From Bacteroidales bacterium (GTDB lineage: Bacteria; Bacteroidota; Bacteroidia; Bacteroidales; PUMT01), in the NCBI GenBank assembly GCA_007134675.1, contig SLKJ01000001.1, forward strand, positions 1-60,931: a DNA stretch of 60,931 bases, in the 5' to 3' direction. The notes beneath the pieces were generated by a model. The model made no database searches. It saw only the letters and a program-made list of their open reading frames with translations, and was not told the DNA's origin. Position numbers and translations under genes: made by a program. This document shows, piece by piece, positions 10,446 to 26,223 of the stretch (position 1 is its first letter; every line of letters begins with the position of its first letter).

Positions 10446-11732
10446 TTATTCTCTTACTTCCCTGTAGATACCAACCAGTTTCGCGGACTGGGTGTTGATA
10501 TTGAACTTTTCCTCGACTCCCTCTCGTGCTTTCCGGCTCATCTCCTCAAGCACCTTTTTATTGCCGAGTACTTTTTCCAGTGCTGCAGCCAGCTTCAGCG
10601 GGGTATTTTCTCCACATAATAATCCTCCTCCGCCTGGTTCAATTATTTCAGGGAAAGCTCCCAGTGAGGGTTGTACAGCCGGTATACCGCTGGCCATGGC
10701 TTCTGTCAGGTAAATACCGAAGGCCTCACCGTTACGTACCGGTACCGACAGAACTGATACGCGTTCGAAGAAAATATGCCTGTGCTCATTATCAAAGTTC
10801 TCCAGAAATATAACGTCCTTATCAACTCCGGCATCTGCGATCTTCTGTTTCTGCTGCCTGATAAAAGTGTTATCGTCGCCGGTACTTCCACCACTGACGT
10901 ATAGCTTCAGGTCGTGGTTTTTGGCATCGGACTTAAGTAAGATAAAGGCATCTACCAGTATGTCAAGTCCGTTAGCCTCACACATTCGTGACAGGAACCC
11001 TATTGAGCGTGCTTTCCCGCCGGAATTTATATATTTATAATCGTCAGGATCGACTCCAAGATGAAGTGTATGAACCTTTTTGTCTTCAAGATTCATCTTC
11101 TCTTTCATAAACCGCGTAAAGTAATGGCTGACTGATACAAATGCAGCAATATCCCTGGCTTTTTCACTCATCAGTTTCCATACTGCTTCGCGGCTTGTCT
11201 CAGACATTATATCAACCCATACATCCTCATCCTGAAGCGAGCATACCACCGGTACGCCGAGTCGGCTGTTAAGCCTTCCTGCAAGTCCCAGAAGCAGAGC
11301 ATTTGAAAGGTGAATAACATCGGGCTTGTAGTTCTTTTCAAGCCAGTGCACCATTTTTTCAAGTTCATCAGCCTGCTTGCCGTGCTCACCCAGCAGCATC
11401 GATATGGTCATATCCTCCAGACCCTTTGCCCGGGTTGATCCTGCCATTTTAGCTGCCTGTTTCAGCACAGGCGTGGTATTCAGCATATTGTCAAACCACT
11501 TTGGTGCTTTCTTAAAAAGAGGGTAGGTTTGCTTAAGGTAGAGGTTTACTGCTCCGTAAAATACCGGCACGTGGTCGTTGTCTTTATCATGGCTGAACAG
11601 GGGCAGGTACATTGGGATCTTCAGAACATCATGCCCAAGTGTTTTTATTGAGCTGTAATATTTACTGTCGCGCAGGCAGTTGCCACAGTAAAAGCTTCCT
11701 CCCGAACCAGGTATGATATGGACTATCTTCAT
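10446..11732 (-). CDS. Glycosyltransferase family 4 (GT-B) with N-terminal CxxC
   Basis: PDVIHLSN, EAFGIYLTEAMASGIP (EX7E), GAFPEII; N-terminal GSGGSFYCGNCLRD. Confidence 0.88.
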   Translation of the reverse strand: MKIVHIIPGSGGSFYCGNCLRDSKYYSSIKTLGHDVLKIPMYLPLFSHDKDNDHVPVFYGAVNLYLKQTYPLFKKAPKWFDNMLNTTPVLKQAAKMAGSTRAKGLEDMTISMLLGEHGKQADELEKMVHWLEKNYKPDVIHLSNALLLGLAGRLNSRLGVPVVCSLQDEDVWVDIMSETSREAVWKLMSEKARDIAAFVSVSHYFTRFMKEKMNLEDKKVHTLHLGVDPDDYKYINSGGKARSIGFLSRMCEANGLDILVDAFILLKSDAKNHDLKLYVSGGSTGDDNTFIRQQKQKIADAGVDKDVIFLENFDNEHRHIFFERVSVLSVPVRNGEAFGIYLTEAMASGIPAVQPSLGAFPEIIEPGGGGLLCGENTPLKLAAALEKVLGNKKVLEEMSRKAREGVEEKFNINTQSAKLVGIYREVRE

Positions 11733-11834
11733 AACTTCTTGCTTTTATTATTTTTATCTTACGTTTTGCCGTTTCTTAATGCTCAGAATAAATTGTTGGT
11801 TGTGCGGATCACTGCCCGGTTTTATTACAAGGGT

Positions 11835-12986
11835 TCAGTTCCCAAGGCACCAAACTGTTCCGTCGTTGGTGCCCAATACGATTCTGTTGCCCGATATTGC
11901 AGGACTCCCCGATACCGCGCTACCCGTCTCGAACATCCACAGCCTCCTGCCTGTATTGATATCGAGCAGCAAAATGTCGCCCCTCATATTGGCTACAAGC
12001 ACCTGCCTGCCGTCTGTAACCGCCGACGATTCGACCCTGCTGCCCGTGTTTGTTTTCCATTGAACCTCTCCCGTCTTTTTATCAAGGCTGTAGACAAACC
12101 TGTCCCTGTTCCCGATGATGATTCTGTTGCCATAGATTGCAGGGGATGCGACGAATGGAAGCTGCCTCTCCTCATCAGTCCACCGCCAGAGGATATTACC
12201 CCCGAGATAATTGACTGCGGTCAAGGTCCCGTCATAGTCGCCTATATAGGCAATCTCTTCATCCAAAGCCGGTGATCCGGCCACGTAGCTGGCTATCTCA
12301 ATTTCGGGAAGTGCGTCACCCCTTTGCAGGTCAACCCTGTGCAGGTAGCCGTCGCAACCGCCAAACACCGCCAGGTCACTCTCAATTGCCACGGCTGAGT
12401 GGAGGTAGTTGTACAGCTCATATTTCCATAAACCTTCGCCGGAATCGGCATCTATGGCGTGAAGGTAATAGTCATAGCTGCCCACCAGCAGGATATCTCT
12501 TTTGCCGTCTGACCAGATGTTGGGGGCAGCCGATACCTGGTTATCGCAATCGTATTGCCATATCAGCCTTCCGCTGCTCAGGTCAAGGCAGAAGATGGTG
12601 CCCTGAAGATTGCCGATGTACACCCTGTTATTATGGATCAGGGCAGGTGCCTCGATGGTGTTGCCGGTTTCGTACTGCCAGATCAGTTTGCCATCCATGC
12701 TGAGGCAATAGACAATACCGTCTCCCGATCCTATGACAATCCTCGAGTTGTAAATAACCGGAGAGGACTTAAGGTCGAATCCGGCTTCGAAAGTCCACAA
12801 TACTTCCGGATTTGCCGGGATCTGGTTCACTGTCTTGCCCGTAAGTTGTGCATTGCCCCTGTAATTTTTCCAGTCGCCTCCGTCAGGCCGGGCCTGCAGC
12901 GGGGTAACAGCCGTGATTATGACTAAAACAATAGCAGTCATTACCGGATCATATCGTTGGCGGAACTTGCTTAAATGGTTATTCAT
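11835..12986 (-). CDS. Exported PQQ-binding-like beta-propeller protein
   Basis: Signal peptide, WKNYRGN, repeated SSPVI...G.DG.VYCL...G.LIWQY tryptophan-docking blades. Confidence 0.88.
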   Translation of the reverse strand: MNNHLSKFRQRYDPVMTAIVLVIITAVTPLQARPDGGDWKNYRGNAQLTGKTVNQIPANPEVLWTFEAGFDLKSSPVIYNSRIVIGSGDGIVYCLSMDGKLIWQYETGNTIEAPALIHNNRVYIGNLQGTIFCLDLSSGRLIWQYDCDNQVSAAPNIWSDGKRDILLVGSYDYYLHAIDADSGEGLWKYELYNYLHSAVAIESDLAVFGGCDGYLHRVDLQRGDALPEIEIASYVAGSPALDEEIAYIGDYDGTLTAVNYLGGNILWRWTDEERQLPFVASPAIYGNRIIIGNRDRFVYSLDKKTGEVQWKTNTGSRVESSAVTDGRQVLVANMRGDILLLDINTGRRLWMFETGSAVSGSPAISGNRIVLGTNDGTVWCLGN

Positions 12987-24856: not shown

Positions 24857-24999
24857 TTATTATATCTTTTTAAAAAGTAAATATTTAATCTGTAAACAAG
24901 TATATAAACTACTTTTAAAACGATATCCTGATTACGGAATTATCTGCCATGAGCAATGATTAACTGATTTTAATATTCCTGCGTATAATCAGATAATGA

Positions 25000-26223
25000 T
25001 CATTGTCGGTCACTGATATTAAATGCCATCAGTGCATTTCCACGTCTAACATAAAGGACGCCTCCGTCAATTACCAGATGTGCCCAGTGCTGGCCTGATC
25101 CAAGTGTAATATCAGTCTGTCCAACAATATCAAAGCTTTGAGGGGAAGGATTCACAAGTGCCAGCTCGCCCCTTTCAGTATAACAGTAAAGCCGGCCGTC
25201 GGCGTAGATAACCGTTCCTTTGTCAATATCACGGGTTCGGTAAATCCTGTCCCCGGTCTCCCAGTCAATGCAGAACCAGAATCTGTTATTATGTCCGGAA
25301 CCATACAGATAACCATCAATAAGCACTGCACCACCCATCTGGTTGTCAAGATCGCGGCTGCTCCACTCAACACCGGCAAGTTTGCCGACCGAATCAAGTC
25401 TGAGCCGGACTCCCCCCCTTCCGTATCCGCTGAAGGCGAAGATGCTTCCCTCGTGGTATATGGGTGTGTTTGGATGTACATCCCACCTGTTTTCATGGTT
25501 GTATTTCCAGAGTACCCTTCCCGAATCTGCATTGAGCGCAACAATATGGTCCTTCGTATGTGTTATGAGGATATTTTGTCCATAGTGGTTGACAAGCAAT
25601 GGCGAGCAATAGGCCGATACTTCGCCGGTGCCCTGACTGGACCATAATATCTCACCATTATGGCGGTTAAGGGCAACGATATTGTGCTTTCTGCCACCCG
25701 GGGTACAGTATATCCTGTCGCCGTCAACCAGCAGGTTCTCCGTCAGTCCCCAGCGTATGTTCCTGCCGTCAAGATCATTGAACAGGTCGATCTGCCATAT
25801 TAAGCTGCCTGAACCTGCATCCATGCATACCAGACGTCCCATGCTGCTTACAATATATATCATCCCATCAACCACAGCAGGTGTATTGCGGCTACCCGGA
25901 TAACTTTCGCCGTGAAATTCCGGCCCGTAGGCAAACCTTTCCACAAGATTGCCGTCCATGGAAAGCTTATATACATAACCTGTCTCATCCTCTTTTCCAG
26001 TGATGAATATATTGCCGTCTGCCACCACAGGTGAAGAAAATCCTTTGCCAAGTTTTTCATATGCCCACTTCATCTCGGGGCCGGCGGCGGGCCATTCTCT
26101 GAGCAATCCAGTCTCATTATAGATGCCCTGCCTTTCAGATCCCCGCCAGTTATTTGCTGTCTGGGAATAAACAGCCGCTGATGCTGTAACTAAAAAAGAT
26201 ATCAACAGAAATAATGTTCTCAT
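25000..26223 (-). CDS. Exported PQQ-binding-like beta-propeller (paralog of 23603-24856)
   Basis: Signal peptide ending VYS-Q; NWRGSER, GKGFSSPVV, SAYCSPLLV, HWAHLVIDGGVLYVR. Confidence 0.88.
   Translation of the reverse strand: MRTLFLLISFLVTASAAVYSQTANNWRGSERQGIYNETGLLREWPAAGPEMKWAYEKLGKGFSSPVVADGNIFITGKEDETGYVYKLSMDGNLVERFAYGPEFHGESYPGSRNTPAVVDGMIYIVSSMGRLVCMDAGSGSLIWQIDLFNDLDGRNIRWGLTENLLVDGDRIYCTPGGRKHNIVALNRHNGEILWSSQGTGEVSAYCSPLLVNHYGQNILITHTKDHIVALNADSGRVLWKYNHENRWDVHPNTPIYHEGSIFAFSGYGRGGVRLRLDSVGKLAGVEWSSRDLDNQMGGAVLIDGYLYGSGHNNRFWFCIDWETGDRIYRTRDIDKGTVIYADGRLYCYTERGELALVNPSPQSFDIVGQTDITLGSGQHWAHLVIDGGVLYVRRGNALMAFNISDRQ

Follow-up and report, generated by a model that had tools for sequence, protein, structure and literature searches.

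The redox genes of this Bacteroidales window (the whole stretch of 60,931 nucleotides analysed here) belong to a conserved unit which, on a reading that we favour tentatively, encodes a single redox machine that spans the envelope and takes at least 14 genes. It would be a membrane-bound complex of the Bfu type whose third substrate is a periplasmic reaction carried out at β-propeller proteins, with electrons probably flowing outward and serving as a fermentative electron sink.

The gene unit and its distribution

The twelve-gene layout (g01 to g12) proposed in the preliminary description was confirmed, with all ORFs on the minus strand (Table 1) and intergenic gaps of -4 to 143 nt. Pfam bore out the domains assigned to these genes, apart from g05, for which neither Pfam nor NCBIfam gave a match. 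The further claim of one co-oriented, conserved unit also found support, as 78 of the 80 loci taken from public Bacteroidota genomes keep g01-g12 collinear and the same order recurs in four other families of Bacteroidales and on metagenome contigs, some of them labelled human gut. Many sediment and gut Bacteroidales carry the intact cluster, and a g07 orthologue occurs in 54 of the 301 genomes sampled from the order. Around g07, each neighbour except g05 was found by tblastn in 45/52 to 64/64 loci, counting for each gene the loci with room for it. Since the upstream flanks vary among genomes, the unit seems to travel as a block. At g04/g05, and again at g08/g09, the stop codon of one gene overlaps the start of the next, and RNA-library contigs identical to the window map on g04, g09, g10, g11, g12 and g14, which is weak evidence of transcription.

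Table 1. Genes of the conserved unit and the insertion that splits it (window coordinates)
Feature	Positions	Strand	Basis	Present in loci with room
g01 secreted PQQ_2/BamB-like propeller, 407 aa	25000-26223	-	PF13360 E 5.4e-26	53/56
g02 secreted PQQ_2 propeller, 417 aa	23603-24856	-	PF13360 E 1.4e-19	55/61
g03 membrane-anchored eight-bladed-like PQQ_2 propeller, 478 aa	22096-23532	-	Pfam, AF2, Foldseek	62/65
g04 membrane-anchored NHL propeller, 321 aa	21128-22093	-	PF01436	68/69
g05 Cys peptide, 74 aa	20907-21131	-	translation	
g06 Tat-signal periplasmic polyferredoxin, 192 aa	20316-20894	-	Fer4 families (Pfam)	78/79
g07 NapH/MauN-like membrane Fe-S protein, 422 aa	18947-20215	-	PF12801 Fer4_5 E 2.9e-14	
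g08 three-TM-anchored PQQ_2 propeller, 618 aa	17022-18878	-	PF13360 E 1.1e-34	64/64
g09 fused BfuC-BfuB	14650-17025	-	Pfam: NuoE, thioredoxin-like 2Fe-2S, NuoF/FMN, C-terminal 2x[4Fe-4S]	59/60
g10 BfuA-like Fe-S subunit, 535 aa	13018-14625	-	2Fe-2S, Fer4_20, truncated GltD-type FAD fold	56/57
g11 secreted PQQ_2/ACSF4-type propeller, 383 aa	11835-12986	-	PF13570 E 9.6e-65, PF13360 E 6e-37	49/53
g12 GT4 glycosyltransferase, 428 aa	10446-11732	-	PF00534 E 3e-21	45/52
Insertion, 3.7 kb, between GT4 and ABC genes	6900-10360	mixed	Pfam	
Insertion: aldo-keto reductase	9341-10360	+	Pfam	
Insertion: SSF symporter	7794-9248	+	Pfam	
Insertion: collagen-repeat ORF	6900-7568	-	Pfam	
g13 LolD/MacB/DevA-type ABC ATPase, 228 aa	6073-6759	-	PF00005 E 7.9e-33	
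g14 duplicated FtsX/MacB-type permease, 1170 aa	2465-5977	-	PF02687 x2, PF12704	

The cluster had been described as ending in the GT4, and here a correction is needed: the ABC ATPase g13 and the permease g14 with its duplicated FtsX domain stand behind the GT4 wherever loci extend far enough, and they are members of the conserved unit. In the loci of sufficient length, orthologues of g13 (46-59% identity) come after the GT4, and full-length orthologues of g14 follow next in L100, L101, L104, L105 and L013. The unit is split in the present genome by an insertion whose genes are absent between the GT4 and the ABC genes at the other loci compared. In one exceptional genome (G045), g02-g04 are missing and the GT4 lies about 62 kb away.

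It is most improbable that the modules are chance neighbours, i.e., a cytoplasmic transhydrogenase operon of the Nfn/Stn type, a NapGH-like pair and BamB-like envelope proteins. Every module's family does also work alone, and in two loci (L143 and L176) the NuoEF/GltD genes lie on the opposite strand, inverted relative to g07. Against this, the order is kept in the 78 genome loci and in several families while the flanks change, the overlap at g08/g09 crosses a module border, and g10 is without the NADPH domain that defines Nfn/Stn. Moreover, the GT4 and g07 share a common phyletic profile, with both present in 10 of 41 genomes, both absent from 27, and 4 discordant genomes that are all fragmentary MAGs.

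We found the unit described in no curated family, solved complex or paper, in agreement with the earlier statement that no characterised system of this composition was known: no NCBIfam model reached its cut-off with the cluster proteins, and the literature search returned no description of the cluster. Overall, the conserved unit and the lack of a matching description have stood, and the GT4 end and the NADPH site of g10 had to be given up. The earlier proposals of a propeller hetero-oligomer as the catalytic end, of a direction of electron flow and of a part for the GT4 are kept as hypotheses.

Cytoplasmic core and iron-sulfur link

The best PDB relatives of g09 are 9bov_B, NfnB 9n5u_B and 8oh5_B (E 1e-202 to 1e-212). 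It corresponds to the core of NfnABC/StnABC (Bfu; 9n5u, 8oh5, 9bov) as a fused BfuC+BfuB and retains every BfuBC cofactor site, as these are defined in the part of PMC11829005 drawn on here, namely C1 (Cys 61/61), the FMN/NADH domain, B1, and B3/B4 (Cys 61/61). Its cluster Cys are conserved in 61/61 sequences, except for C657 (56/61). We propose that NADH would be oxidised at the FMN of g09 and that electrons may be exchanged with ferredoxin at its C-terminal clusters.

The A subunits of NfnABC/StnABC have in common with g10 the 2Fe-2S and 4Fe-4S clusters at the N terminus, those of Fer4_20, the FAD fold and the Fe-S region after it; the 19 Cys of g10 are invariant (55/55 sequences). Unlike those subunits, g10 lacks the NADPH-binding domain (~130 aa) of GltD/NfnA and the C-terminal catalytic, formate-dehydrogenase-like half; its alignments with 9bov_A, 8oh5_C and NfnA 9n5u_A fall into two pieces, with about 130 target residues skipped. 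The flavin domain is wholly missing in one subclade; G038 and 12 of the 17 metagenome orthologues lack it. Of the former label "BfuA/GltD-like", the shared Fe-S/FAD fold can therefore be kept, but not the NADPH site, nor, for this large subclade, the flavin domain. A role as an Nfn/Stn enzyme is ruled out for g10 on the same two grounds, and because of them we take g10 as an Fe-S wire, which would lead from g09 to the cytoplasmic clusters of g07. A further difference from NfnABC/StnABC is that the g09 and g10 genes sit among membrane and periplasmic genes. The flavin/Fe-S pair and the GT4 had been called unanchored, and this holds: g12 has no hydrophobic segment, and the single internal hit of each of g09 and g10 in the hydropathy scan reads as domain core, not as a TM helix.

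The membrane protein g07 has a conserved QQRFPxPEF in its periplasmic N-terminal part, a pair of CX3CP motifs, and a pair of CxxCxxCxxxCP motifs with two TM helices lying between them; hydropathy points to a signal-like segment plus six TM segments. Its invariant Cys are 99, 101, 143, 147, 195, 231, 235, 259, 262, 265, 269, 408, 411, 414 and 418. The AF2 model is a helical bundle (pLDDT 76.6) to which no solved structure is similar, the PDB fold search giving no match at E<=0.001. An electron path across the membrane in g07 is putative, as the protein has neither a haem nor a demonstrated quinone site; indeed, no CxxCH haem motif occurs in any cluster protein. Next to it, g06 holds four CxxCxxC...C motifs with 16 cluster Cys (15 Cys of the protein are invariant, and C69 and C60 near-invariant, one aligned row having Ile at C60), and a Tat motif with R9 and F12 invariant and R10 nearly so (31 sequences). 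In three metagenome loci (L137, L142 and L153) g06 and g07 are fused into a single ORF, which lends support to the idea of Fe-S wiring.

The small g05 runs from a Tat-like R-[RK]-x-F through a hydrophobic stretch to C-x5-C-x2-C-x5-C, with the four Cys invariant in 55 sequences. The Cys peptide was thus correctly noticed, but given the R-[RK]-x-F motif of the family its "Tat" label should be softened to Tat-like. Of 80 loci, 63 have a motif ORF of this type in the g04-g06 interval; we counted it in this way because tblastn, which finds 7/76, is too insensitive for it. Electrons would pass from g07 to the exported tetra-cluster ferredoxin g06, together with g05.

The g06-g07 pair resembles NapGH, NosGH and MauMN in being adjacent, in the Tat signal and four 4Fe-4S motifs of g06, and in the Fer4_5 domain, two CX3CP and two ferredoxin motifs of g07. 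It differs from NapH/MauN in that g07 scores far under the model cut-off (41 bits against 213 for TIGR02163) and has its second ferredoxin motif after two extra TM helices, and from the systems as a whole in that the cluster has no NapA/NapB, NosZ, methylamine dehydrogenase or cytochrome c and places a cytoplasmic NADH module beside the pair. Docking of g09/g10 on g07, like any contact of g06 with a propeller, is put forward as a prediction.

Propellers, glycosyltransferase and exporter

All six propellers had been taken to be exported or anchored, and the hydropathy scan agrees, with an N-terminal hydrophobic segment in each and three TM segments in g08 (15-33, 81-99 and 134-152). The most conserved is g03 (in 69 sequences, 118 of 478 columns reach 95% conservation or more, among them R162-N-H-G-M-S-R-T169, H116, H261 and numerous Arg), a candidate catalytic or binding subunit. 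Its AF2 model (pLDDT 88.8, N-terminal helix 2-30) matches BamB (E 3.7e-18) and tetrathionate hydrolase (E 1e-15; identity 12-14%) in Foldseek, but these are generic BamB-like, tetrathionate-hydrolase and PQQ-enzyme folds only (TM ~0.55). The likeness to BamB, tetrathionate hydrolase and PQQ-dehydrogenase lies in the eight-bladed-type fold and repeat motif (g03 Foldseek E 1e-15 to 4e-18); the cluster propellers differ by scoring far under the BamB and PQQ-enzyme family cut-offs and in that their signal peptide is not followed by a lipoprotein Cys. Nor could a redox cofactor site be recognised in the propellers, and pqqC had no match in the 91%-complete genome, a search in which the control genomes gave none either. 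In g08, residues 20-87 (the TM1-loop region) and N381-H-Y-G-H385 are conserved. The paralogues g01 and g02 occur in one to five copies per locus, varying between genomes. In the favoured scheme g06 would deliver electrons to the periplasmic reaction, most likely at g03 and the Cys-Cys NHL protein g04, with g01, g02, g08 and g11 as binding or scaffold subunits.

In g04, G244-C245-C246-N247-P248 is invariant (31 sequences) and holds a vicinal Cys pair, and its profile matches the TRIM71 NHL domain (E 1.7e-15), with NHLRC2 and SOQ1 among the weaker PDB matches. NHLRC2 and SOQ1 combine NHL with thioredoxin-like domains. The GT4 has a conserved N-terminal GGxSFYCGNCLRD; its C16, C19, H141 and C164 are at least 95% conserved (41 sequences), and only the donor half aligns with MshA, BshA and PimA. 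As to the exporter, g13 reaches 235.6 bits with the LolD model (cut-off 307.75), and g14 shows ten hydrophobic segments in the hydropathy scan, consistent with about 10 TM helices and two large periplasmic domains; a sequence search of g14 against the PDB gave no match. The LolD-like ATPase, FtsX permease domains and MacB periplasmic core domain recall the type VII exporters MacB, LolCDE and DevCA, from which g14 differs in its permease duplicated within one 1170-aa chain and in scoring under every curated cut-off. The unit showed neither a membrane-fusion partner nor a TolC-like one. The GT4 and this ABC system might supply or export a glycosylated lipid, cofactor or substrate needed by the periplasmic part.

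These components bring to mind another purpose, envelope maturation or repair. Instead of serving energy metabolism, the Fe-S chain would then supply the periplasm with reductant, to be used in thiol/disulfide or cofactor chemistry whose target is a glycoconjugate or protein. The GT4 would take part in making this target, and the MacB-type transporter and the propellers would handle it. Such a chain would be the Fe-S counterpart of electron export of the DsbD type, or of MauM/MauN and NosR as redox helpers. We regard this purpose as unlikely. The GT4 and exporter speak for it, as do the Cys pair of g04 with its NHLRC2 and SOQ1 matches, the 4-Cys mini-protein g05, the variable copy number of g01/g02, as with binding proteins, and locus L129, which has a radical SAM gene ahead of g07 and a protein with an AhpC/TSA-Redoxin domain inserted after g08 and before g09. 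However, the Redoxin insertion occurs in that locus only, no glycan or lipid product is known, and disulfide reduction would need far less than a complete bifurcating BfuBC core whose ferredoxin-side clusters are conserved.

Direction of electron flow

The outward transfer of electrons to periplasmic reductases by NapGH and NosGH pairs provides a precedent for our preferred reading, in which a low-potential periplasmic acceptor would take up the electrons of NADH and reduced ferredoxin formed in fermentation, giving a sink independent of H2. Thiosulfate, polysulfide or another sulfur compound might be this acceptor, a guess drawn only from weak fold resemblance and the conserved Arg.

The same wiring could also run inward, from a low-potential periplasmic donor oxidised at the propellers through g06, g07 and g10 to g09, to be bifurcated to NAD+ and ferredoxin, much as H2, formate or NADPH serve as donors in known Bfu enzymes; this too we consider unlikely. 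The hosts look like sugar fermenters in want of sinks and not of more reductant (hydrogenases in 33 of 41 genomes), NapGH-type pairs run the other way, and the unit contains no known donor-oxidising cofactor (hydrogenase, Mo/W, haem or PQQ). On the other side, according to PMC11829005 and PMC9304861, characterised Bfu enzymes bifurcate the electrons of a mid-potential donor, their third substrate, at [B1-FMN-C1], and Bfu reactions are reversible; these sites are all conserved in g09.

Membrane-bound Bfu complexes have been predicted before, as Mbh-Bfu and Nuo-Bfu (Schut et al. 2022, PMC9304861), though the words "propeller" and "PQQ" are absent from the main text of that paper. These complexes use hydrogenase or Complex-I membrane arms, whereas in the present cluster a NapH-like Fe-S protein forms the membrane part and ion-pumping subunits are absent; what they have in common with it is a BfuBC core proposed to sit on a membrane module, with the third substrate outside the soluble enzyme.

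As most relatives of the host already have [FeFe] hydrogenases (33 of 41 genomes), the need for a second electron sink is not obvious, and across these genomes the hydrogenases show no anticorrelation with the cluster.

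Gene content, conservation and extent of the unit

The minus-strand region g01-g12, which runs from a propeller gene (g01) to a GT4 gene (g12) with intergenic gaps of -4 to 143 nt in the window, is one unit. Among 41 related genomes, with E below 1e-100 as the threshold for an orthologue of the NapH-like membrane Fe-S protein g07, strong orthologues were found in 12, with four other families of the order represented, and in those other-family genomes the cluster genes are identical in set and order to those of the window. A scan of species-representative genomes gave 557 confirmed relatives; the best 80 all belong to Bacteroidota and include the cultured Draconibacterium orientale, D. 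sediminis, Maribellus luteus, M. mangrovi and Gaoshiqia sediminis. A gene-neighbourhood search of the kind proposed in the preliminary description finds g01 to g12 collinear in 78 of these best 80 loci; 63 of the 80 have an ORF of the g05 type in the interval from g04 to g06. That the modules lie side by side by mere chance is extremely improbable, as both this synteny and the missing NADPH domain of g10, discussed below, argue strongly against it.

The unit does not extend beyond part of the order. When the order was sampled evenly, 54 of 301 genomes and 44 of 208 genera had a g07 orthologue at E<=1e-60; when the phylum was sampled evenly, a g03 profile at the same threshold matched the window's own genome alone among 401. 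A further scan, with the divergent g07 of the G038 type as its query (G038 being one of the sampled genomes), recovered 543 relatives with the same cluster in metagenome contigs, some of them labelled human gut; gene maps were drawn for 42 of 80 metagenome loci, all of at least 9 kb, the 38 shorter ones being left out. A flank comparison found no conserved upstream neighbours, and upstream flanks vary between genomes. In some genomes McrBC, AAA_5/EVE, YhcG nuclease, GIY-YIG and GDSL lipase genes occur within the cluster, and they look like insertions rather than parts of the unit. A genome of the same genus (G012) carries two g07 copies, on contigs C380 and C228, each 89% identical to that of the window, and a few genomes carry a second, distant NapH-like gene.

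Every domain named in the preliminary description was recovered by Pfam, and the topology it claimed is consistent with a hydropathy scan of the 12 proteins: each of the six propellers has a hydrophobic segment at its N-terminus, TM segments number three in g08 and six, besides a signal-like segment, in g07, and g12 has no hydrophobic segment. The single internal hydrophobic match in each of g09 and g10 was read as a domain core rather than a TM segment. For none of the 12 proteins did an NCBIfam model score as high as its curated cut-off.

The unit had been thought to end in the GT4 gene, but two further genes lie downstream in nearly every locus reaching far enough. The gene after GT4 (g13) encodes a LolD/MacB/DevA-type ABC ATPase, and the second (g14) a permease of 1070-1170 aa that combines a pair of FtsX domains with a MacB-type periplasmic core domain (PF00005 in g13; PF02687 twice and PF12704 in g14). 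This combination of a LolD/MacB-type ATPase with an FtsX permease bearing a periplasmic core domain is that of the Type VII (MacB/LolCDE/FtsEX) ABC transporters; since the LolD model gives g13 235.6 bits against a cut-off of 307.75, g13 belongs to the superfamily only, and g14 had no match in a PDB sequence search. In the window, 3.7 kb separates GT4 from the ABC genes, a stretch that looks like an insertion because the two parts are adjacent in other genomes. The G038-type variant has the order g11, ABC, FtsX, GT4. The phyletic profile of GT4 is that of g07, both being present in 10 and absent from 27 of the 41 genomes; in the four discordant genomes either completeness is 70-75% or the gene lies at the end of a contig. 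For g12 itself the GT-B donor domain (Glycos_transf_1, PF00534) reaches 76.2 bits, above its cut-off of 26.4, while the scores for the specific families MshA, BshA and EpsE fall far under each model's cut-off.

Features of the unit, of its variants and of its surroundings (L, public genome or metagenome locus; presence, loci carrying the gene beside g07 among those with room for it, best 80 of 557 relatives)
Feature	Location	Strand	Assignment	Presence
g01-g12	window 10446-26223	-	12 ORFs
g01			PQQ_2/BamB-like propeller (Pfam)	53/56
g02			PQQ_2/BamB-like propeller (Pfam)	55/61
g03			PQQ_2/BamB-like propeller (Pfam)	62/65
g04			NHL propeller (Pfam)	68/69
g05			74 aa; Tat-like start, four Cys (translation)
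g06			polyferredoxin (Pfam)	78/79
g07			Fer4_5 (NapH-type) membrane protein (Pfam)
g08			PQQ_2/BamB-like propeller (Pfam)	64/64
g09			fusion NuoE + NuoF + 2x[4Fe-4S] (Pfam)	59/60
g10			2Fe-2S domain + Fer4_20 + FAD fold (Pfam)	56/57
g11			PQQ_2/BamB-like propeller (Pfam)	49/53
g12			GT4 (Pfam)	45/52
g09 residue 657	window about 15055-15057		third Cys of B1 motif; Gly in 5/61 orthologues
g13	window 6073-6759		ABC ATPase
g14	window 2465-5977		duplicated FtsX permease
Genes between GT4 and ABC	window 6900-10360	-, +, +	collagen-repeat ORF, SSF sodium:solute symporter, aldo-keto reductase (Pfam)
Flanking gene	window 26666-28165	+	aromatic amino acid (histidine/phenylalanine) ammonia-lyase; not conserved beside cluster elsewhere
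Flanking gene	window 669-2291	-	apiosidase-like glycosidase with DUF5060; not conserved beside cluster elsewhere
Cluster genes including g14	window 2000-6000 and 12000-24000		G+C 49-54%
Right-hand part	window 28000-60000		G+C 40-46%
g06-g07 single ORF	L137:8520-10298		592 aa
g06-g07 single ORF	L142:9437-11224		595 aa
g06-g07 single ORF	L153:18-1361		partial
g10-g11 single ORF	L031:15411-18251		946 aa
Variant cluster	L129:8695-18226		radical SAM gene before g07; 411-aa AhpC/TSA-Redoxin-domain protein between g08 and g09; seen once
Selfish/defence-type genes	L082:15538-19145; L051:13396-14394; L026:13897-14907; L100:1875-2207		g09/g10 interval: McrBC + AAA_5/EVE protein; g08/g09 interval: YhcG/DUF1016 nucleases; GT4/ABC interval: GIY-YIG gene

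The cytoplasmic module and the Fe-S proteins of the membrane and periplasm

Sequence similarity places g09 closest to the B subunits of Bfu enzymes with solved structures (9bov_B, NfnB 9n5u_B and 8oh5_B; E 1e-202 to 1e-212). Its NuoE-like part (PF01257, E 5.8e-50) holds the C1 [2Fe-2S] ligands C87, C92, C129 and C133, which are Cys in all 61 orthologues. The NuoF-type FMN/NADH domain (PF01512, E 3.3e-43; PF10589, E 5.3e-32) holds the B1 [4Fe-4S] ligands, with C651, C654 and C697 in 61/61 and C657 in 56/61, and the C-terminal 2x[4Fe-4S] (B3/B4) domain (Fer4_21/Fer4 at 740-789) has eight Cys in 61/61. According to PMC11829005, the minimal bifurcation site of Bfu enzymes is the flavobicluster [B1-FMN-C1], and ferredoxin is served by B3/B4. 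By these three sequence criteria (C1, FMN/B1 and B3/B4) g09 qualifies as a BfuBC core with predicted bifurcating activity.

The label 'BfuA/GltD-like' proposed for g10 holds for the Fe-S and FAD match to the A subunits (9bov_A, 8oh5_C and NfnA 9n5u_A), but not beyond it, as the NADPH domain is missing and the flavin domain is absent in a subclade. The alignment falls into two pieces, query 1-282 on target 3-289 and query 267-510 on target 422-671 (9bov_A, 8oh5_C), leaving unmatched about 130 target residues between them, which from the GltD fold we take to be the NADPH Rossmann domain; moreover, g10 stops before the C-terminal half of the A subunits. The short form is family-wide, at 480-549 aa in genome loci; the exceptions are fragments, a single orthologue of 578 aa and a fused ORF. 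This last joins g10 to the counterpart of the secreted propeller g11 and may be a true fusion or stem from misassembly. The whole flavin domain is absent, with both Fe-S parts kept, in G038 and in 12 of 17 metagenome-locus orthologues, and 19 of 19 Cys are invariant in 55 sequences. With no NADPH domain, a dispensable flavin domain and invariant Cys, g10 has the features expected of an Fe-S wire, and the pair does not correspond to an Nfn/Stn transhydrogenase, whose A subunit would bind NADPH; the third substrate must consequently lie elsewhere.

In g07 the motifs C143x3C147P, C231x3C235P, C259xxCxxCx3C269P and C408xxCxxCx3C418P are invariant across 35 sequences, as are three more Cys outside them and QQRFPxPEF in the periplasmic N-terminus. 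By the positive-inside rule, the CX3CP and ferredoxin motifs would face the cytoplasm, and C99, C101 and C195 the periplasm. Like the NapH/MauN family, g07 is polytopic in the membrane and carries two CX3CP and two 4Fe-4S motifs, but it stays far under the curated cut-offs (41.2 bits against 213.05 for TIGR02163, NapH/MauN; 34.6 against 234 for NapH PRK09477). Its model had no PDB fold match at E<=0.001, and a PDB sequence search matched through the ferredoxin motifs only.

The periplasmic polyferredoxin g06 likewise resembles the NapG/NosG/MauM type in its twin-arginine signal and four 4Fe-4S motifs: in 31 sequences R9 and F12 of the Tat motif are invariant and R10 nearly so, and 16 Cys of four CxxCxxC...C motifs are listed as invariant, one aligned row having Ile at C60. 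It reached no cut-off of the NapG-type curated models and had no match in the PDB sequence search. Whereas NapG, NosG and MauM systems have NapAB, NosZ or MADH as partners, none of these is encoded in this cluster; neither a CxxCH motif nor, by Pfam, a molybdopterin, NosZ or MauA/B family was found among the 14 proteins, and a NapGH nitrate system was therefore rejected. A single ORF encodes both g06 and g07 in three metagenome loci, an arrangement that agrees with the topology and supports a complex of the two proteins.

The propellers

Conservation among the propellers is highest by a wide margin in g03, where 118 of 478 columns are at least 95% conserved, among them R162-N-H-G-M-S-R-T169, three His and numerous Arg. 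The g03 model, at pLDDT 88.8, shows a BamB-like propeller with a TM anchor and has further fold matches to tetrathionate hydrolase and PQQ enzymes, at 12-18% identity throughout, and in the ESM Atlas only BamB-family clusters were retrieved. As these matches are generic, no enzyme assignment follows. In g04 G-C-C-N-P is invariant, and g01/g02 occur in one to five copies per locus. The predicted complex of g06 with g03 and g04 scored 0.12 against a mark of 0.32, which counts neither for nor against such a complex.

Two identities were rejected for the propellers. TIGR03300 (BamB) gives 27-144 bits against a cut-off of 285, and a BamB lipoprotein signal is likewise lacking, no Cys ending the signal peptides of g01, g02 and g11, and g03, g04 and g08 being TM-anchored. 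For PQQ-dependent dehydrogenases, TIGR03075 gives 15.8-75 bits against 480, and the PF01011 matches are single repeats. In the window's own genome (91% complete) pqqC is unmatched and pqqE under cut-off, the pqqC control likewise matching in no genome, so that pqqC may be present undetected.

Proposed function and its significance

The best-supported reading, to which we give somewhat less than an even chance, is that of a membrane-bound Bfu-type complex whose third substrate would be a periplasmic reaction, electrons passing from cytoplasmic g10 to g07, then to g06 and on to that reaction. We favour outward flow, in which NADH and reduced ferredoxin would feed a low-potential periplasmic acceptor, because outward is the direction in which NapGH-type pairs carry electrons and because the hosts ferment and possess hydrogenases; that the acceptor might be a sulfur compound is a guess. 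Inward flow through the same chain is decidedly unlikely. The hydrogenase anticorrelation test helps neither reading, for PF02906 is found in 33 of 41 relatives independently of the cluster. An envelope maturation or thiol-redox role is also unlikely, albeit that the GT4, the ABC exporter and the Cys-Cys NHL protein g04 point towards it, as does the single variant locus with a Redoxin-domain protein.

On a wider reading, possible but doubtful, the outward-flowing Bfu-type complex would represent a new class of terminal oxidoreductase, in which an all-Fe-S wire that needs neither quinone nor haem would connect an electron-confurcating BfuBC core with catalytic propellers on the other side of the inner membrane, these being either without a known redox cofactor or with a new one built or delivered via the GT4 and the MacB-type exporter. 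If so, fermenting Bacteroidales of sediment and gut would gain a periplasmic low-potential electron sink competing with H2 formation. Such a sink would alter how H2 and redox are budgeted when sediment and gut fermentation are modelled, and would give a role to many propellers now misleadingly named 'BamB-like' or 'PQQ-like'.

Bfu enzymes have a central place in anaerobic energy metabolism, and, if the membrane-bound reading holds, this would be the first Bfu core with its third substrate across the membrane, reached via a protein of the NapH family, whose fold and transmembrane electron path are still unsolved. The view that no characterised system has this composition stands, since no curated model, solved complex or paper found matches the gene set, the literature search having covered texts outside the supplements. 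The main text of the Bfu survey PMC9304861 mentions neither propellers nor PQQ, predicts membrane Bfu complexes of the Mbh and Nuo types only, and says that the third substrates include 'many yet to be discovered'; its supplementary clade tables, where the Nfn-type BfuB of Bacteroidetes is clade 53, may list these genes. The unit is common, in 54 of the 301 sampled genomes of the order and with more than 500 relatives in each of two public collections, and its carriers include cultured Draconibacterium and Maribellus strains as well as contigs labelled human gut; it is therefore open to direct genetic and biochemical test.

A promoter and terminator scan, using a consensus other than that of Bacteroidota, stayed near shuffle expectation. 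Short contigs from one metatranscriptome match the window exactly on g04, g09, g10, g11, g12 and g14, none spanning two genes; this is a weak sign of transcription of the covered genes, and a lack of cover elsewhere carries no meaning. The stretch occurs in sequencing runs labelled as metagenomes of soda lakes, salt lakes and alkali sediment.
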